Shown here: one piece after another, positions 1,450 to 7,482 of the stretch
Numbering within the stretch: position 1 is the stretch's first letter
Layout: each line of letters starts with the position of its first letter
IMG/VR virus record: IMGVR_UViG_2657245015_000003
From: a virus
Lineage: Duplodnaviria > Heunggongvirae > Uroviricota > Caudoviricetes
Length of the DNA stretch: 7,482 bases
Reading direction: 5' to 3' (one strand)
The notes under the pieces: model-generated
Seen by the model: the letters and a program-made list of their open reading frames with translations, nothing else
Database searches by the model: none
What the model was told of the DNA's origin: nothing
Position numbers and translations under genes: made by a program

Positions 1450-2278
1450 GGTTTACCCCCTTGCTGACTGGTTTAACCTGCGCCCTGACGTGATTTACGT
1501 GACGGGCGAATTTCTGCTCCCACTGAATCTGCGTAAACACTTTCCCCTCCGCTGCCCAGTAGTCCCGGAAGGCGGCAAGTTCAGCAGGTGTAAATTCTGT
1601 CTCCGGCAAAGCCATCCCCCACAACGCAGCCCGTCGTCGAAAATCCCGTGACGGATACCAGCTATCGGTCATCGGAAATTTTCCGATGGGTTCGCTCAGG
1701 CCATCCAGGAATACAAGGGGTGCTGCCTGTAACGACAAAACTTCCTGCTCACTGGTCGGAGCACTCTCGCGTGCGTTATGTGTGGGGTTTAGATCTTTGG
1801 GTTCCTTTGGGTTCCGTGATCCGTTTTTGGGTGTCTTTGATGGAAAATTTGGGTGTCTTTGGTTATTTTCCATGCAGCTAAGAGTTCCGTTTTTGGGTCT
1901 GTTTTGTGCTGAAACATAACCATTTTCGGTACTGTTTTTATTAACAGCACCAATTTTACCCACCTTTAAAGACTCCCGTTTTTGGGTGTATTCAGGCTCG
2001 GCAACACTTTCTTCTACACCGATAAGTCGGTACACCACAATTTGCTTTGTTCTGCCTTTTCTCTCACCGGTATCAACAATTAACCCAATCTCCATCAGGT
2101 GTCGTAAGCTGTCCTGCACAGTCTTTTTGTTTAGTTCCGTTACTTCTGCCAGTGCAGATACAGACGGGTATGCACACAAATCGGCACCGCACATATCAGC
2201 AAGCCAGGTCAATACAGACTTACTGGATGAACTGCCGGTTTTCACCTTTTTAGCCCATCGTAGTGCATCGATACTCAT
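1238..2278 (-). CDS. Replication initiation protein, O-like: N-terminal HTH DNA-binding domain, iteron-encoded linker, DnaT-like C-terminal domain
   Basis: Long reverse ORF (track 1238..2353). Preferred start is the ATG at 2278 (MSIDALRWAKKVKTG...), with AGGGG 6 nt upstream. The N-terminal region SVSALAEVTELNKKTVQDSLRHLMEIGLIVD is HTH-like. A low-complexity PKNG/KTPKNGSRNPKEPK linker is encoded by the DNA repeats at 1795..1990. The C-terminal FPMTDSWYPS...FRDYWAAEGKVFTQIQWEQKFARHV resembles the DnaT C-terminal domain as I recall it. Confidence 0.7.
   Translation of the reverse strand: MSIDALRWAKKVKTGSSSSKSVLTWLADMCGADLCAYPSVSALAEVTELNKKTVQDSLRHLMEIGLIVDTGERKGRTKQIVVYRLIGVEESVAEPEYTQKRESLKVGKIGAVNKNSTENGYVSAQNRPKNGTLSCMENNQRHPNFPSKTPKNGSRNPKEPKDLNPTHNARESAPTSEQEVLSLQAAPLVFLDGLSEPIGKFPMTDSWYPSRDFRRRAALWGMALPETEFTPAELAAFRDYWAAEGKVFTQIQWEQKFARHVNHVRAQVKPVSKGVNHAAAPGGTASRAVQEIRAAREQWERENGFISDGNGLEAVGAYGGGVFEPLDTEERGRTFEALDCPDWRDD
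1795..1990. repeat. Iteron array plus AT-rich segment inside the O-like gene: candidate phage origin of replication
   Basis: TTTGGGT core occurs at least 6 times (about 1796, 1806, 1826, 1848, 1892, 1981). The longer unit CCGTTTTTGGGT occurs three times (1821..1832, 1887..1898, 1976..1987). An AT-rich stretch at about 1900..1975 lies next to it. Lambda ori has the same layout: iterons within O, then an AT-rich region. Confidence 0.5.
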
Positions 2279-2801
2279 ACAAACCCCTGGCAGACATTTG
2301 TTTATCTGCAAAGTAATATTGATATTGCTGACGATACGCATGCTTGAAAGCAATAGCTTTTTCTATAAGCTCGTCAGTCTCACGTTCCACAACAGCTGGA
2401 TCCGCAAAAAGCAGCCCGGACTCCACCACATCGCCATATTCTTTGTTTAATCCGGCGATCATGTACGTAATGCTTTTTCCATCACTGATCTCACGATACA
2501 ACCTGAAATCACTAATTCGGATAGCCTCCATAATTGCCGGAATCAGCGCCGTGAATTTTTTCCGCTTATCCCTGGTGTCGATAGCTTTCCAGCGTTCGAA
2601 TATCTTCACCCGGTTAACGCCCAGCGCCCGTTGATCAACCTCGCCATCATTAAACGTGACGCGTTGAACATCGATGTTCGGGCGTTCTTTCAGAGCCCAG
2701 AATGCTTCCGTGATTAATATCGTCGCTTGCTCCTGTGTCATTCCTGGTCGACATACCCAGGCATCCAGAGCCTCACAAACCTGTTCAGGGGTGATTTTCA
2801 T
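2250..2801 (-). CDS. YdaT-family protein (CII-position gene of the Cro-side operon)
   Basis: 183-aa ORF immediately downstream of, and overlapping by 17 nt, the Cro-like gene. It starts MKI and contains ALIPAIMEAIRISDFRL, reminiscent of the recalled K-12 YdaT (MKI...KLIPAILAILPRELRHRL). Longer than the 140 aa I recall for K-12 YdaT. Confidence 0.6.
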   Translation of the reverse strand: MKITPEQVCEALDAWVCRPGMTQEQATILITEAFWALKERPNIDVQRVTFNDGEVDQRALGVNRVKIFERWKAIDTRDKRKKFTALIPAIMEAIRISDFRLYREISDGKSITYMIAGLNKEYGDVVESGLLFADPAVVERETDELIEKAIAFKHAYRQQYQYYFADKQMSARGLYEYRCTTMG

Positions 2802-3012
2802 TGTTCAACCGCCCCGCCCGCTTTGCCTTACGATATTCGTCATAAACTTTGGGGTCGTACTGAAGTTCCCCGCCGGATGCCTCCTGTAGACGCATCGCGC
2901 GACCTTCAGGAACCAGTTTCCCCCATGCAGCAACGCTTGCCAGCCTAACGCCTGCGGCATTGGCAAGCTTTGTTTTGCTGCCAAAAAACGCTATAGCATC
3001 AATTTTCAACAT
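2785..3012 (-). CDS. dicC: Cro-position small regulator, DicC/YdaS-like
   Basis: 75-aa ORF divergent from the dicA-like gene. AAGGAG lies 6 nt upstream of the ATG at 3012. The motif FGSKTKLANAAGVRLASV is HTH-like. Position and size match dicC of Qin. Confidence 0.7.
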   Translation of the reverse strand: MLKIDAIAFFGSKTKLANAAGVRLASVAAWGKLVPEGRAMRLQEASGGELQYDPKVYDEYRKAKRAGRLNNENHP

Positions 3013-3088
3013 ATCGAACTCCTTAGATTTTCCTAAGGAAACTAGATCGTAGAGAAACCTAAGTCAAGAAAAATTAGAATTACCTAAT
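3013..3088. promoter_or_regulatory. Divergent promoter/operator region between the dicC-like and dicA-like genes
   Basis: 76-bp AT-rich intergenic region. It holds a perfect inverted repeat CCTTAG-N6-CTAAGG (3021..3038) and further CCTAAG/CCTAAT half-site copies at 3058..3063 and 3083..3088. Confidence 0.5.
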
Positions 3089-3496
3089 ATGAAAAACGAA
3101 ACCTTCGGTGCTCGCCTCTTATACAGGCGTAAAAAATTAAAACTGTCTCAGGCCGCATTAGGTAAGCTGGTCAAAGTGGCTCACGTAACAATTTCTCAAT
3201 GGGAAAGAGATGAAACACAGCCAGCGGGGAAGAGATTATTCGCACTGAGCCAGGCGCTTCAGTGCTCGCCGACTTGGCTTCTTTTTGGAGATGAAGATAA
3301 GCAACCAGGCGAACCGATCCCAGATAATCAGCCAGTTAATCTGACAGAAGATCAAAAAGAGTTGCTTCAACTGTTCGACGCACTGCCTGAGTCAGAGCAA
3401 AAGGCTCTGTTGTCAGAGATGCGTGCTCGAGTTGAGAATTTCAACAAACTTTTTGAAGAACTACTCAAAGCTCGCAAAAGAAGCGCAAATAAATAA
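3089..3496 (+). CDS. dicA: DicA-like HTH (XRE/CI-type) prophage repressor
   Basis: 135 aa. The N-terminal region ARLLYRRKKLKLSQAALGKLVKVAHVTISQWERDETQPAGKRLFALSQALQCSPTWLLFGDEDKQP and the C-terminal EMRARVENFNKLFEELLKARKR closely resemble the recalled E. coli DicA. No obvious SD upstream. Confidence 0.85.
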   Translation: MKNETFGARLLYRRKKLKLSQAALGKLVKVAHVTISQWERDETQPAGKRLFALSQALQCSPTWLLFGDEDKQPGEPIPDNQPVNLTEDQKELLQLFDALPESEQKALLSEMRARVENFNKLFEELLKARKRSANK

Positions 3497-3569
3497 CCCC
3501 CTCCCTTTTTTTCGCCACTCTCTGTAATAAAAAGCATAAACTTTCAAATGCTTGTGTTTTTTACATCAA

Positions 3570-3630
3570 AAAACTTAGGTTTTTCTACACAAAAAGCTTG
3601 ACCACAATTCTTAGGTTATTCTAAATTCTA
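3570..3630 (+). promoter_or_regulatory. dicB-operon promoter (PL analogue) with flanking DicA-type operator repeats
   Basis: Candidate -35 TTGACC (3598..3603) and -10 CTAAAT (3621..3626) with 17-bp spacing. Two copies of CTTAGGTT(T/A)TTCTA (3574..3587 and 3609..3622) bracket the -35, echoing the CCTTAG/CTAAGG half-sites of the dicA/dicC intergenic region. Confidence 0.45.
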
Positions 3631-3703
3631 CTCATCAAGACACCGCACGGTGTTCTCAGCAAACAGTTCCGCTACCCTGGCGTTAAGGGGAAATGAGGTC
3701 AGC

Positions 3704-3859
3704 ATGGATACTATCGATCTTGGCAACAACGAATCTCTGGTATGCGGCGTGTTTCCCAACCAGGACGGCACGTTCACCGCGATGACGTATACCAAAAGCA
3801 AAACGTTTAAAACCGAAAATGGTGCCCGTCGCTGGCTGGAAAGAAACTCAGGTGAGTGA
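3704..3859 (+). CDS. ydfA: YdfA-like small protein (51 aa)
   Basis: ATG at 3704 with GAGGT upstream gives MDTIDLGNNESLVCGVFPNQDGTFTAMTYTKSKTFKTENGARRWLERNSGE. Length and position (first gene after the promoter downstream of dicA) match ydfA of Qin. The ORF-track N-terminal extension from 3650 is unlikely. Confidence 0.65.
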   Translation: MDTIDLGNNESLVCGVFPNQDGTFTAMTYTKSKTFKTENGARRWLERNSGE

Positions 3860-3860
3860 T

Positions 3861-3989
3861 ATGGATTTCGACACAATCATGGAAAAGGCTTACGAAGAAT
3901 ACTTCGATGGTCTTGCCGAAGGCGAAGAAACTCTCAGCTTCAACGAATTTAAACAGGCGCTTTCCAGTTCGGCAAAATCTAACGGCTGA
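3861..3989 (+). CDS. ydfB: YdfB-like small protein (42 aa)
   Basis: Below the ORF-track size cutoff; found by hand translation as MDFDTIMEKAYEEYFDGLAEGEETLSFNEFKQALSSSAKSNG. AGGTGA lies upstream and the start is 1 nt after the ydfA-like stop. Size and order match ydfB. Confidence 0.6.
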   Translation: MDFDTIMEKAYEEYFDGLAEGEETLSFNEFKQALSSSAKSNG

Positions 3990-4018
3990 TAAGCGAAACA
4001 GCACCGCGAGGAATCAGT

Positions 4019-4237
4019 ATGCAGAAACGAGAACCCGTCATCATCGCGCCAGACTATACCGATGATGAACTTTATGAGTGGATGCGCCAGAAAATTAATG
4101 CAGTGCAGGATCTGAAATGGGCCAATGAAGCCAGGACTAAGCAGGCTGAAAATCTGTCCGCTCTGGAGCAGGATATCACCAGGCTGGAAAAAGCAGCGGC
4201 ATTAAGCATTGCCAGAATGGTTACATACCCACGTTAA
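4019..4237 (+). CDS. ydfC: YdfC-like small protein (72 aa)
   Basis: 72-aa ORF with GAGGAA upstream. Size and order match ydfC of the dicB operon. Confidence 0.65.
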   Translation: MQKREPVIIAPDYTDDELYEWMRQKINAVQDLKWANEARTKQAENLSALEQDITRLEKAAALSIARMVTYPR

Positions 4238-4259
4238 TAGCTAACCAACGAGGCTAATA

Positions 4260-4661
4260 ATGGAATTTAAAGATTTACCAATGCCATTCCAGGAAATGGC
4301 AGCGAATGTGGTTCGCTCTCAACTGGCGACTCTTGACCTGAGTACTGTAGAAAAGGAAACCATCGATACTATATCCGGTAACGTGCGTCGTGCCTTTATA
4401 GGTCTGTATGAAGAGAAGCGCCTATTCGGCGGACAGAATTCGCCTGAAAACAAGAATCAAGCAAATGATGAGAAGCTGAAACACATTATCGCCTTACTTT
4501 TGGAAGACGCAAAACGTCTACAGCAACTGGAACCAAATGCAGGCACAGAGGCCCGCATTTGGATTGCCATGAAATCACTCAAATGTGAAAGCAGTGATTA
4601 TTTCAAAACAACAATTAAAACTACTCAACTTTCGGGAGAGCTACTGAAGAAATTGCCATAA
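4260..4661 (+). CDS. Hypothetical protein (133 aa), unknown function, co-oriented with the dicB-type operon
   Basis: ATG 22 nt after the ydfC-like stop, with GAGG 6 nt upstream. Codon pattern is coding-like. No recognisable motif. Lies in an AT-rich segment. Confidence 0.5.
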   Translation: MEFKDLPMPFQEMAANVVRSQLATLDLSTVEKETIDTISGNVRRAFIGLYEEKRLFGGQNSPENKNQANDEKLKHIIALLLEDAKRLQQLEPNAGTEARIWIAMKSLKCESSDYFKTTIKTTQLSGELLKKLP

Positions 4662-4899
4662 GAGCATGGTCTTTCTCTTGTTCTGCAAGATGAGCATTAA
4701 TACCTGGTATGGTTTTTTCAAATTTATCTATCTGTTGAATAACAACTTCGCGGTATACGTTTGTTTTTGTACCACCAAGCGCAGCCGTTAATGCAGAAAG
4801 CATATTTAGTATCATATCAGTGCGATATGAAAGAATCCTGATAGCTTCATCTTGTTTTTCAATAATAGATTGCAGGGCCTCAATTTGCTTTTTATCCAT
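4621..4899 (-). CDS. Hypothetical protein (92 aa from ATG at 4899; 105 aa if the GTG at 4938 is used), antisense to the dicB-type operon
   Basis: Strong RBS: AGGAGGG lies 4 nt upstream of the ATG at 4899. AT-rich coding-like codon usage (MDKKQIEALQSIIEKQDEAIRIL...). Its 3' end overlaps the convergent 133-aa ORF by 41 nt. Confidence 0.5.
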   Translation of the reverse strand: MDKKQIEALQSIIEKQDEAIRILSYRTDMILNMLSALTAALGGTKTNVYREVVIQQIDKFEKTIPGINAHLAEQEKDHALMAISSVALPKVE

Positions 4900-5231
4900 T
4901 TCACCCTCCTGAGGGTTGGTAATTAAGGAGTTCTCCACGGGTCAGGTGGAGTGCGTGCGCCGGACACGGGTGAACATCCGGCACTGACAGTTTACTGAAA
5001 GGATATGTCCCTGAAAAGTCAGGGCATAACGCGAAAGCGCACGGCGAAATTGGTCTCTCTGTACGGTGTCGTTAAATTTAGTTCGACCGTGCGCTTCCGG
5101 TTGTGGCACTCCGCGAAATGGCGCGGCGGTAAGTATGGCGGGGTTATTCCTTCCCCCGTTGAGGACACCGGGTTGTCAGGTTGACCATACGCTTAAGTGA
5201 CAACTCCGCTGCAACGCCCTCTGTTATCAAT

Positions 5232-5289
5232 TTTCTGGTGACTTTTGGCGGTATCAGTTCTACTCCGTGACTGCTCTGCCGCCCTTTTT
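5232..5289 (+). ncRNA. dicF: DicF small regulatory RNA with 3' intrinsic terminator
   Basis: TTTCTGGTGACTTTTGGCGGTATCAGTTCTACTCCGTGACTGCTCTGCCGCCCTTTTT matches my recollection of DicF at nearly every position. The 3' end is a GGCGG...CCGCC stem followed by a T-run. Lies between ydfC and dicB, as in Qin. Boundaries approximate. Confidence 0.8.
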
Positions 5290-5571
5290 AAAGTGAATTT
5301 TGTGATGCGGTGAATGCGGCTCAGCGCACGCGGAACAGTTAAAACCAAAAACAGTGTTATGGGTGGATTCTCTGTATCCGGCGTTAATTGTTAACTGGTT
5401 AACGTCACCTGGAGGCACCAGGCACCGCATCAACAAAGTTCACTTCGGTGATGAAAGGTAGAGAAAATGTTGAATGTAGCTATTGAAAACCAGAACGGGT
5501 GGAATTATAGTGCACCTGCACCTCATAAAACGGGTGCCGGGCGTGGAAACCCGAAATCATTCACGGCGCAT

Positions 5572-5594
5572 AACCGCGCTCAGGCGGTTTTTTT
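5572..5594 (+). terminator. Candidate intrinsic terminator upstream of the Rha-like gene
   Basis: AACCGC-GCTCAG-GCGGTT hairpin followed by a run of 7 T on the plus strand. Confidence 0.4.
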
Positions 5595-5763
5595 ATGCGT
5601 TAAGCACAGCCACATTCGCATTATGGTGGGGCGTGCAGGGCAGCCGCAAGGCTGGCCGGGTTCCGTGATGACCGGTATTTCCACCCCTGTACGTCTCACC
5701 ACCCTTATGGTCGTGGAAAACCTCGGTGGTGAGTTAATCAAATTCATCGCGGAGGCTGCCATC

Positions 5764-6321
5764 ATGGCTACTATCCTTACCCTTTCTCACCCTGACGTAA
5801 CCATCGAAAATGGTCGCGCTGTCACTACGTCTGTTGCGATCGCCGAGTTCTTTGGCAAACGCCACGAACGAGTGTTGGATAAAATTCGCAATCTGGACTG
5901 TTCAGCAAAATTCACTGAGCACAATTTTGTGTCGAGCGAATACACCGACTCAACCGGGCGCAAACTCCCAATGTACCAAATCACCAAAAACGGCTTCGTT
6001 TTCCTGGTGATGGGCTTCACTGGCAAAAAAGCCGCTGCATTTAAAGAGGCATACATTGCTGAGTTCGACCGCATGGAAGCTGAACTGCGCCAGAATAACG
6101 CCCCGTCTCCCGACAAAATGATTCACGGGGACGGACGCACCCTGGTTATCCGTCTCGACGAACACGGCAATATCAAATTCACTGAAACCGTTCCTGACGG
6201 CGCAATGGTCTGCACCCTGGATACCTTCCTGTTTTATCTGGAGCAACAAGGCTGGACTCTTGTAAACCGGAGCGCAATTAAAAATATGACTGTGGAGCAA
6301 TTGCTAAAAATTCATTGTTGA
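5764..6321 (+). CDS. Rha-family phage regulatory protein
   Basis: The ORF-track frame runs 5467..6321, but the ATG at 5764 has GGAGG 8 nt upstream. The terminator-like hairpin at 5572..5594 lies inside the upstream extension, whose translation looks non-protein-like. From 5764, the segment VTTSVAIAEFFGKRHERVLDKIRNL...KLPMYQITKNGFVFLVMGFTGKKAAAFKEAYIAEFDRME matches the Rha-domain pattern as I recall it. Confidence 0.6.
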   Translation: MATILTLSHPDVTIENGRAVTTSVAIAEFFGKRHERVLDKIRNLDCSAKFTEHNFVSSEYTDSTGRKLPMYQITKNGFVFLVMGFTGKKAAAFKEAYIAEFDRMEAELRQNNAPSPDKMIHGDGRTLVIRLDEHGNIKFTETVPDGAMVCTLDTFLFYLEQQGWTLVNRSAIKNMTVEQLLKIHC

Positions 6322-6331
6322 GGACGCGATA

Positions 6332-6520
6332 ATGGAAACGTCACTACCAAACGTTAATACGTCTGACGGGTGCTTTAATATTGGTGTTCTGCTCAGTAAC
6401 AGGGATTTCACCGAGGATGCAATCAATATGAGAAAATATGAACCCTACCTGCTGAATGACAATTCCATACTCTCCAGAATTGCCCTTCTTAAACTCGGTA
6501 TTTTCGGAGAGTGGCGATGA
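6332..6520 (+). CDS. dicB: DicB-like cell-division inhibitor (62 aa)
   Basis: METSLPNVNTSDGCFNIGVLLSNRDFTEDAINMRK... closely resembles the recalled K-12 DicB N-terminus (M.TLLPNVNTSEGCFEIGV...FTEDAINKRK). 62 aa. GAGGA upstream. Lies downstream of dicF. Confidence 0.8.
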   Translation: METSLPNVNTSDGCFNIGVLLSNRDFTEDAINMRKYEPYLLNDNSILSRIALLKLGIFGEWR

Positions 6521-6720
6521 ACACATTATTCGTACTCATTCTGACTGTACATCTCAATACTGGTGAGTCGCTTGATGCAATCACCGGCATGTACAACTCA
6601 ATGAAAGAATGCATGGCTGCCGCAGCGGAACAGAAAATTCCCGGCAACTGTTATCCGGTCGATAAAGTTATTCACATGGACAATAACGAAATCCCGGCAG
6701 GATTAAAAACAGCGCCGTAA
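6517..6720 (+). CDS. ydfD: YdfD-like small protein (lysis-associated in Qin)
   Basis: ATG at 6517 overlaps the dicB stop as ATGA. 67-aa product with a hydrophobic N-terminus (MNTLFVLILTVHL). Position matches ydfD. Confidence 0.65.
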   Translation: MNTLFVLILTVHLNTGESLDAITGMYNSMKECMAAAAEQKIPGNCYPVDKVIHMDNNEIPAGLKTAP

Positions 6721-6800
6721 TTAATATCCAGTTTCATTTTTATATGCCAGCAATGGCAGGGATTTGTTCACCCTGAAATCTGTAATGAGGTTAAAACAAA

Positions 6801-7482
6801 ATGAGTAAGGTCTTTATTTGCGCCGCTATTCCTGACGAACTGGCAACAAGGGAAGAAGGCGCTGTGGCTGTAGCCACAGCCATTGAAGCTGGCGACGAAC
6901 GCCGTGCTCGAGCAAAATTTCACTGGCAATTCCTGGAACATTATCCGGCTGCTCAGGACTGCGCTTATAAATTTATTGTCTGCGAGGATAAACCTGGCAT
7001 ACCCCGCCCTGCCCTCGATTCCTGGGATGCTGAATATATGCAGGAAAACCGCTGGGATGAGGAATCCGCTTCCTTTGTCCCGGTTGAGACTGAATCAGAT
7101 CCGATGAACGTCACTTTTGACAAGCTGGCCCCTGAAGTACAGAACGCTGTCATGGTTAAGTTCGACACATGTGAAAACATCACCGTTGATATGGTTATTA
7201 GCGCACAGGAATTGTTGCAGGAAGACATGGCAACATTCGACGGACATATCGTTGAAGCGTTGATGAAAATGCCAGATGTTAACGCCATGTATCCGGAGCT
7301 TAAGCTGCATGCCATCGGGTGGGTTAAGCATAAATGTAAGCCTGGTGCCAAATGGCCCGAAATTCAGGCAGAGATGCGCATCTGGAAAAAACGTCGCGAA
7401 GGCGAACGCAAGGAAACCGGAAAATACACGACTGTTGTTGATCTCGCCCGCGCCAGAACCAATCAACAGCACAGTGAAAATT
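6801..7482 (+). CDS. Prophage protein of unknown function (possibly YdfE-like), 3' end runs off the window
   Basis: ATG at 6801 is the first start after an in-frame stop. The frame stays open for 227 codons to the window end (hand translated; absent from the ORF track because it is incomplete). Acidic, protein-like composition. GAGG lies about 10 nt upstream. Confidence 0.55.
   Translation, partial: MSKVFICAAIPDELATREEGAVAVATAIEAGDERRARAKFHWQFLEHYPAAQDCAYKFIVCEDKPGIPRPALDSWDAEYMQENRWDEESASFVPVETESDPMNVTFDKLAPEVQNAVMVKFDTCENITVDMVISAQELLQEDMATFDGHIVEALMKMPDVNAMYPELKLHAIGWVKHKCKPGAKWPEIQAEMRIWKKRREGERKETGKYTTVVDLARARTNQQHSEN

Follow-up and report, generated by a model that had tools for sequence, protein, structure and literature searches.

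What lies between dicF and dicB in prophages that depart from the arrangement of Escherichia coli K-12, and how might it be controlled? DicF and DicB are textbook prophage-encoded inhibitors of cell division that have been studied almost only in K-12. The question is raised by a 7,482-nucleotide (nt) stretch of a caudoviral genome (IMG/VR record IMGVR_UViG_2657245015_000003), hereafter the window, which covers the immunity and early region of a lambdoid, Qin/Rac-like prophage and holds a Rha-type gene between the two division inhibitors. We consider it likely that the block containing this gene forms a self-contained cassette in which antisense RNA controls an antirepressor gene, comparable in type to immI of phage P1 and to the isrK locus of Gifsy-1, and placed upstream of dicB. 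The evidence comprises the position of a promoter, two RNA genes, a terminator, four target sites with their covariation, the coding start, and domain homologies. Processing of the C4-type RNA, repression by it, activation by IsrK, Rho polarity, and the activity and target of the antirepressor are functions that we infer from these relatives.

The block between dicF and dicB and its RNA genes

Comparison of the window with the Qin prophage of K-12 (NC_000913), using BLASTN and MAFFT, delimits an extra block between dicF and dicB (Table 1). The alignment stops at window position 5442 and restarts at 6307. Its flanks remain close to K-12, with 93% identity over dicF and the next 150 nt, and 88% over dicB-ydfD. 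DicF and dicB are separated by 1047 base pairs (bp) in the window versus 174 bp in K-12. An initial annotation, made from the sequence alone, had put dicB within about 200 bp of dicF in K-12. Its estimate of about 870 bp for the window agrees with the size of the extra DNA (864 bp) and not with the separation of the two genes. The Rha-domain open reading frame (ORF) that it placed between them, without a K-12 counterpart, is borne out by a Pfam match and by the K-12 alignment, and the gene does not occur at this position in K-12 or in most genomes. An imperfect 8-bp direct repeat brackets the block (AAAGTTCA at 5435-5442 and AAAATTCA at 6307-6314), a configuration compatible with an insertion in the window and with a deletion in K-12.

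The arrangement of the window between dicF and dicB is a minority one in E. coli. Within a sample of 5426 complete genomes, the block with both flanks was found in 314 and the contiguous short arrangement of K-12 in 3838. At a coverage of at least 80%, the block is present in 394 of these genomes with 84-100% identity. It occupies three contexts, namely before dicB, before kil/kilR in Rac-like prophages, and before ydaE, and its left flank is unchanged in the latter two.

To place the block among its relatives, 22 cassettes were compared, consisting of the window and 21 further loci from phage and E. coli collections. The further loci include E. coli prophages in several contexts, Shiga toxin (Stx) phages, ST64B, P88, TL-2011b, YYZ-2008, a Yersinia phage, a Klebsiella phage, and Gifsy-1. 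All 21 hold the pair of isrK and C4 genes. The genes that follow the leader in other cassettes are of the ORF6N, Bro-N, Ant-annotated, P4-type 'derepression', and Rha kinds. Since these downstream antirepressor-type genes differ in family, the leader can be regarded as a portable control unit for such genes. In two relatives the Rha gene itself is damaged, by an IS3 element (L006) and by a frameshift (L013).

The cassette opens with a sigma-70-type promoter. Across all 22 cassettes, exactly 6 nt separate the end of the best -10 hexamer from the 5' end of IsrK, a spacing shared by at least six different promoter sequences. In position, the promoter corresponds to PisrK in Gifsy-1 and to P1c4 (P51b) in P1. 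PisrK has been mapped experimentally and is needed for anrP transcription in Gifsy-1 (PMC4825925).

The IsrK-like small RNA (sRNA) that follows contains three hairpins, of which the first covaries at six of six pairs. The third hairpin and its U-run are the element at 5572-5594 that the initial annotation had described as a terminator. That description is upheld, as the terminator scan recovers the element (stem 5572-5589, then the T-run) and it forms the 3' end of the IsrK-like sRNA. A promoter or transcription start had also been expected at 5595-5763, between the hairpin and the gene, and there the promoter scan found none. The cassette promoter lies upstream of the terminator instead. Because of this order, Rha would be reached by terminator read-through. 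A gap of 24 nt separates IsrK from C4, as it does in 18 of the 21 other cassettes. IsrK and STnc1160 are strongly transcribed in lysogens under every condition tested (PMC7067206).

Table 1. Features of the cassette, followed by those of the surrounding window (positions refer to the 7,482-nt window).
Feature	Position	Strand	Basis or description
Extra block relative to K-12 Qin	5443-6306		864 bp, between dicF and dicB; BLASTN/MAFFT
Sigma-70-type promoter	5483-5511	+	TTGAAA, 17 nt, TATAGT; 10/12 consensus positions; promoter scan
IsrK-like sRNA	5518-5594	+	Rfam RF01394, 67.7 bits versus gathering score 50
Site a1 (GTGGAAA)	5543-5549	+	Loop of IsrK hairpin 2
Site b1 (TCATTCACGG)	5557-5566	+	Within IsrK-like sRNA
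Intrinsic terminator	5572-5596	+	AACCGC-GCTCAG-GCGGTT, then T7; terminator scan, Rfam alignment, fold
C4-type antisense RNA	5619-5706	+	Rfam RF01695, 81.9 bits versus gathering score 45
b' (UUCCGUGAUGA)	5661-5671	+	Loop of C4 hairpin 2
a' (UUUCCAC)	5678-5684	+	Single-stranded, in C4-type RNA
Target site a2 (GTGGAAA)	5713-5719	+	Exact complement of a'
Target site b2 (UCAUCGCGGAG)	5744-5755	+	Overlaps Shine-Dalgarno sequence GGAGG (5751-5755) of ATG 5764
Leader frame	5623-5763	+	From conserved AUG in 5' strand of C4 stem; no stop, in frame with Rha
Rha-type putative antirepressor gene	5764-6321	+	185 amino acids
Long ORF	5467-6321	+	284 amino acids; frame open 5455-6321
Replication genes		-	First in window order
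CII/YdaT-like gene	2250-2801	-	
cro-like gene	2785-3012	-	
DicA-type repressor	3089-3496		NCBIfam DicA, 241 bits
ydfA/B/C-like small genes			Between DicA-type repressor and DicF
DicF sRNA	5233-5284	+	Rfam RF00039, 71.5 bits; common to window and K-12
dicB	6332-6520	+	Pfam DicB, E=1e-32
ydfD/DUF1482 gene	6517-6720		3' of dicB
Exonuclease gene, start only			After ydfD/DUF1482 gene; last in window order

The C4-type RNA is the equivalent of STnc1160 in Gifsy-1. It consists of a long basal stem and two internal hairpins, and the segment folds with a minimum free energy of -47.3 kcal/mol (z=-4.4 versus shuffled sequences). Its a' heptamer pairs at seven of seven positions with a1 and likewise with a2. 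The b' loop forms 11 bp with b2 at 5744-5754, two of them G-U, and pairs with b1 across a 1-nt bulge. Across the 22 cassettes, which display nine a-types and 15 b-loops, the a1 and a2 of each locus are both complementary to its own a' in every case. When cassettes of different type were crossed as a control, complementarity to a' was found in 0 of 374 combinations. In every cassette, b2 abuts or overlaps the Shine-Dalgarno (SD) sequence of the first downstream gene.

Covariation supports the same base pairs. In an alignment that also includes P1, 96.8% of cells are paired, versus about 40% with partners slid by 1-3 columns. In total, 23 pairs changed on both sides, and values this high occur in none of 500 shuffles. 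Of the seven pairs in the a1 x a' helix, six changed on both sides. The C4 basal stem and hairpin 1 are paired in 100% and 99% of cells, with six and five such changes, respectively.

Structure prediction for the leader alone indicates that CCUC (5721-5724) would pair with the SD sequence, both in the window (z=-3.6) and in most relatives. This predicted pairing fits the observation that the long mRNA of Gifsy-1 is translationally silent by itself. In addition, GGUGGUGAG (5725-5733) is complementary to the 3' strand of the C4 basal stem (CUCACCACC) and pairs with b2 and the SD sequence in the predicted leader hairpin. The three mutually exclusive pairings within 5695-5755 could form a conformational switch.

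A related observation comes from the locus L008 (NZ_CM190143.1, 788-2298), where two complete isrK and C4 cassettes stand in tandem. Their a/b specificities are unlike, with TTGGCGT accompanied by CCGTTGAC in one and GTGGAAA by CTATGTTGA in the other. A Rha-type ORF follows each cassette, and a third Rha gene lies directly upstream. Its layout resembles an array in which each antirepressor cassette has its own, orthogonal address.

Coding start and the Rha protein

The frame that encodes the Rha domain extends far upstream of it, across both RNA genes, and its coding start can be located by the distribution of substitutions. In 11 Rha-linked homologues, variable sites over 5467-5763 fall on the three codon positions as 53/63/54 (p=0.57), which amounts to no codon periodicity, whereas those over 5764-6105 show a strong third-position excess (53/47/93, p=5e-5). 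A GAGG-N8-ATG-GCT motif is conserved at the start. In one relative (L011) and in Gifsy-1, the upstream sequence forms a separate frame that ends in AUGA on the start codon, and this frame is closed early in five other cassettes and in P1. Because periodicity begins at 5764, the GAGG-N8-ATG motif is conserved, and the upstream frames of several relatives are separate or closed, we place the true start at ATG 5764, which makes the protein 185 amino acids (aa) long. The initial annotation had favored the same ATG.

A leader frame begins at a conserved AUG within the C4 stem. It is fused in frame with Rha in the window and in 14 relatives, shows no codon periodicity, and corresponds in position to orf45 in Gifsy-1. 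Translation of orf45 does occur in Gifsy-1. By analogy with Ant1 and Ant2 of P1, the in-frame leader could give rise to a 232-aa isoform of Rha beside the 185-aa one, and ribosome transit through it might open the leader.

The long ORF also matches Pfam Phage_ASH (PF10554; 60.8 bits versus 26) at aa 14-109, equivalent to nt 5506-5793. The matched segment does not evolve as coding sequence and coincides with the isrK and C4 RNA genes. For the cassettes examined, the 'Ash' match thus appears to be a translation of conserved RNA sequence. Among the 120 closest database proteins, nearly all are annotated in a form of 282-284 aa, by the Prokaryotic Genome Annotation Pipeline (PGAP) and most other sources, and a few annotators call a form of 184-185 aa. 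A contig scan with the translated extension returned four loci only, all from E. coli or Shigella. The N-terminal parts of PHROGs 995, 821, 6928, and 3960, described as 'transcriptional regulator/repressor', match translated isrK and C4 as well. These four models and PF10554 may have been built largely on translated RNA genes.

The Rha assignment made by the initial annotation is confirmed by profile hidden Markov models. Phage_pRha (PF09669) scores 107.5 bits versus a cut-off of 29.9, with E=1e-30 for the 284-aa ORF and E=5e-31 for the 185-aa form, and TIGR02681 scores 107.8 bits versus a cut-off of 45.95. The Phage_pRha domain spans aa 120-204 of the long ORF, or aa 21-105 counted from ATG 5764. 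The C-terminal domain (approximately aa 100-172) matches PHROG 2379, 'anti-repressor', over profile positions 106-180 (E=8.6e-9). Homology to AnrP of Gifsy-1 is confined to this domain, the last 75-85 residues of the protein (BLASTP, E=1e-3), and the N-terminal domain matches several PHROGs that bear the label anti-repressor. Expression of AnrP raises transcription of the antQ operon and induces the Gifsy-1 prophage (PMC4825925). The closest homologues of Rha share 86-97% identity (best 120). AlphaFold2, given the 185-aa protein and 21 close homologues, produced a poor model (mean predicted local distance difference test, pLDDT, 42.6; predicted template modelling score, pTM, 0.26), and a PDB sequence search with Rha gave no match (best E=0.78). 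Homology to P1 Ant was considered and rejected, as BLASTP against P1 Ant1 gives E=6.1 and Ant1 belongs to PF03374.

The target of Rha might be the repressor of another prophage, or DNA. In strain 700462 (NZ_CM128581.1), identity to the window is 95% over 122-1798 and 99.6% over 3665-7482, and the intervening 1799-3664 is replaced by an immunity-region swap in which the repressor, cro, and cII-like segment are unrelated. The window carries the DicA type there, and strain 700462 a different helix-turn-helix protein with YdaS and YdaT. A cognate pairing of Rha with the adjacent DicA-type repressor was likewise considered; in this small sample no evidence of such a pair was found, the cassette being 99.6% identical beside an unrelated repressor.

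Three other explanations of the locus deserve attention. A genuine 284-aa Ash-Rha fusion, translated from ATG 5467 on dicA-controlled upstream transcripts and leaving the RNA matches as secondary, would agree with a frame that is open over 5455-6321 and in 15 of 22 cassettes (at 70-100% nucleotide identity), with the Phage_ASH match, with an AAGG placed 7 nt before that ATG, and with a 3-nt length difference between a2 types that keeps the frame. It also corresponds to the form that PGAP and most sources annotate, although the shorter form has already been called by a few annotators. However, the extension has no third-position excess in the very sequences where Rha does, and it harbors two RNA genes that exceed their Rfam thresholds, an intrinsic terminator, and a promoter whose position is conserved. 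Sites that vary in it do so as complementary pairs and thereby alter the amino acids that it would encode, and the frame is broken in seven cassettes, including Gifsy-1, as well as in P1, where c4 is an established RNA. We regard the fusion as very unlikely. Even further from expectation, and in our view barely credible, is the reading of the block as an inert remnant of mosaic prophage recombination with no regulatory role in a cryptic or defective prophage. Qin/Rac-like regions are often cryptic, and the two damaged Rha genes mentioned above would suit such decay, but the Rha ORF is intact with a signature of purifying selection. In addition, the promoter, terminator, both RNAs, and four target sites are intact and mutually complementary, and the block has been kept at 84-100% identity in 394 genomes and three contexts.

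A less distant alternative retains the RNA level as described and changes only the role of the protein. Rha could be a DNA-binding regulator of promoters, for example those of dicB-ydfD or of late genes, instead of an antirepressor that binds a repressor. The family is listed in databases as 'phage regulatory protein / transcriptional regulator', and the same Rha stands beside two unrelated repressors. Against this, the downstream genes in the fetched loci are of the ORF6N, Bro-N, Ant, and derepression types, Rha shares its C-terminal domain with AnrP, which induces Gifsy-1, and anti-repressor labels are attached to several PHROGs that match its N-terminal domain. To our knowledge, the gene behind every characterised leader of the C4/IsrK type is of the antirepressor or derepression kind, as with ant in P1 and anrP in Gifsy-1. 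A promoter-binding Rha therefore seems unlikely, though less so than the other two explanations. The preferred reading, an antisense-controlled antirepressor cassette, also faces several observations that count against it. The 284-aa ORF is open in most cassettes (15 of 22) and is called by annotation pipelines, and some translation of the leader may take place. Neither an icd-like ORF nor an AUGA-coupled orf45 is found in the window. The b pairings are imperfect at both sites, owing to the bulge at b1 and the two G-U pairs at b2. At its N terminus, the protein has a Rha domain in place of the ORF6N domain of AnrP, and no similarity to P1 Ant1 was detected by BLASTP. The 99.6%-identical cassette in strain 700462 accompanies an unrelated repressor, and CTTAGG half-sites, the candidate operators of the DicA-type repressor, cluster only at 3032-3063 and 3574-3615, with none near the cassette. 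Finally, every functional step at this locus is argued by analogy with relatives.

Related systems and a proposed mechanism

The isrK-orf45-anrP locus of Gifsy-1 in Salmonella (Hershko-Shalev et al. 2016, PMC4825925) has its parts in the same order as the window: promoter, IsrK with terminator, C4-type RNA (STnc1160), a2/b2 leader, and then an antirepressor gene, which is 185-187 aa long in the two loci. The same Rfam models recognize the two RNAs of either locus, the logic of a'/a1/a2 complementarity is identical, and the C-terminal domains of AnrP and of the window Rha are homologous. The two loci differ in the N-terminal domain, which is ORF6N in AnrP and Rha in the window, and in their a and b specificities. 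Moreover, orf45 ends in AUGA on the anrP start, whereas the corresponding frame of the window runs into Rha in frame. The Gifsy-1 locus lies beside the late antiterminator gene antQ, whereas the cassette of the window stands between dicF and dicB in the early-left operon. An Rfam search for an isrJ-like RNA downstream of the window cassette found none.

The immI operon of P1 and P7 (c4-icd-ant1/ant2) was reportedly described by Citron and Schuster in 1990. According to the annotation of NC_005856, from which the P1 layout was taken, it shares with the window the succession of promoter P1c4, a1, b1, a terminator-like hairpin, c4, a2, and b2, the last lying over the ribosome-binding site of the first ORF (icd). 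In both, 32 nt separate the -10 hexamer from the start of a1. As in the present set, a/b specificities differ between P1 and P7, and an antirepressor and a cell-division inhibitor belong to one transcription unit. Unlike P1, the window has no icd homologue and no ORF between b2 and Rha; its first ORF is the antirepressor, and dicB follows. P1 Ant carries a KilAC domain (PF03374) unrelated to the window Rha, and no C1-type operator is found at the window promoter. In the P1 record (23231-23312 and 43792-43893), the a1/b1 region ends in a terminator-like hairpin, with a sub-threshold isrK match of 35 bits versus 50. On sequence grounds, this suggests that P1 may make a short transcript resembling IsrK. 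The same record annotates a 'dicF-like region' elsewhere in the genome.

The Qin operon of K-12 (dicA-ydfABC-dicF-dicB-ydfD) matches the window in the flanks dicF and dicB-ydfD, but has no isrK, C4, or Rha between them and also lacks the extra block at 4258-4913. Cassettes of isrK, C4, and Rha with 70-81% nucleotide identity occur in sb41 of ST64B, in 'Rha family' genes of e14-like prophages, and in 'antirepressor' genes of Stx phages. Those cassettes, however, belong to the early-right operon, after cro and ymfL homologues, and their C-terminal domains differ. At four of these loci (the e14-like L009 and L010, L012 of ST64B sb41, and L018 of an Stx1 phage), the annotated coding sequence of 340-385 aa starts 300-400 nt upstream of IsrK and spans the cassette promoter, the terminator, and both RNAs. 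Its first 120 or so codons are without a Pfam match, and we take them to sit where ymfM, an SOS-induced division inhibitor, lies in e14 of K-12. CI RNA of P4 and CB RNA of N15 belong to the same class as the P1/P7 c4 and Gifsy-1 isrK systems. The analogy with P4 was pointed out in the Gifsy-1 paper (PMC4825925).

By extension from these systems, transcription in the window would start from the cassette promoter at about position 5518. Most transcripts would be expected to end at the terminator, giving a 77-nt IsrK-like sRNA, and read-through transcripts would carry the C4-type RNA, the leader, Rha from ATG 5764, and probably dicB-ydfD. In the lysogen, a' and b' of C4 would pair with a2 and b2 and mask the SD sequence of Rha, which would remain untranslated. 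Rho may then terminate transcription before dicB, as proposed by analogy with P1. Because IsrK carries the same two target sequences as the leader, it would be able to compete for the C4 segment. Titration of C4 through a1 and b1 would switch Rha translation on. Experiments in Gifsy-1 showed that anrP is transcribed from PisrK, that the long mRNA is not translated by itself, and that IsrK provided in trans activates translation (PMC4825925). Once made, the 185-aa Rha would relieve prophage repression, acting as an antirepressor or regulator.

The connection with dicB concerns the 3' end of the cassette. The TGA of Rha (6319-6321) falls within TTGTTGAGGACGCGATAATG, in sequence that K-12 also has ahead of dicB, with 10 nt left to the dicB ATG, and the overlap of the sequence preceding dicB with the Rha stop had been correctly recognized by the initial annotation. 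The SD sequence of dicB (GAGG, 6320-6323) overlaps this stop codon, and a terminator scan between Rha and dicB found none. Because of the 10-nt distance, the missing terminator, and the overlapping SD sequence, dicB-ydfD is probably co-transcribed with Rha. It may also be coupled to Rha translation. Some influence of the Rha-type gene on dicB-ydfD, as the initial annotation had suggested, is plausible from this arrangement. That C4 control reaches the division inhibitor too, in the way it reaches icd in P1, is speculative. Gating of the division inhibitor by the IsrK/C4 switch (dicB-ydfD here, kil/kilR in Rac-like relatives), in addition to the antirepressor, is conceivable, yet we lean against it. 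If true, it would provide a DicA-independent, RNA-controlled route to filamentation and prophage derepression. Such a locus would represent a chromosomal counterpart of P1 icd-ant, nested in a dicA-controlled operon and present in about 6-7% of E. coli genomes, including ST131 strains.

The class of system is already known from P1/P7 c4-icd-ant and Gifsy-1 isrK-orf45-anrP, its RNAs have Rfam entries, and annotations of the gene exist. A full-text literature search for dicF, dicB, and Rha together returned only unrelated papers. What seems undescribed is the position of the cassette between dicF and dicB or kil, the combination of Rha with the C-terminal domain of AnrP and an in-frame leader, and an explicit demonstration of the 'Ash' part as non-coding. 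A sizeable minority of E. coli, clinical lineages among them, carries the cassette between the two inhibitor genes; there dicB has a second terminator ahead of it and may be under C4/IsrK control. Hence, conclusions on dicB regulation drawn from K-12 may not transfer to strains that carry the block. The a/b specificities are many and orthogonal, and cassettes can share one genome, which bears on the cross-talk of co-resident prophages. At the level of annotation, the 282-284 aa 'Rha family' entries in hundreds of genomes appear to include translated RNA genes, with a protein of 185 aa in the cassettes examined.

Neighbouring features of the window

Pairs of CTTAGG/CCTAAG motifs flank the dicA-like gene, at 3032-3063 in the dicC-dicA intergenic region and at 3574-3615 upstream of the ydfA-like gene. 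They are likely to be repressor operator half-sites. Over the whole window, the CTTAGG motif is found four times versus 2.2 expected, which is not above chance. Control of the cassette promoter by DicA was considered and set aside, since no sign of it was seen and no CTTAGG resembling a DicA operator lies near the cassette. A tRNA and tmRNA search of the window found none.

A second block without a counterpart in K-12 Qin extends over 4258-4913, between ydfC and dicF. It contains two convergent, overlapping ORFs, one of 133 aa on the plus strand (4260-4661) and one of 105 aa on the minus strand (4621-4938). Pfam gave no match for either, and their PHROG matches are solely to families of unknown function. 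The spacer between dicF and dicB that the window has in common with K-12 contains a sub-threshold Rfam match to STnc100 at 5296-5437 (36.6 bits versus 47). In matching genomes, PGAP annotates 5354-5437 as a pseudogene, 'DicB, missing C-terminus'. Judged by eye only, the dicF-dicB spacer of K-12 seems to read in frame into dicB.

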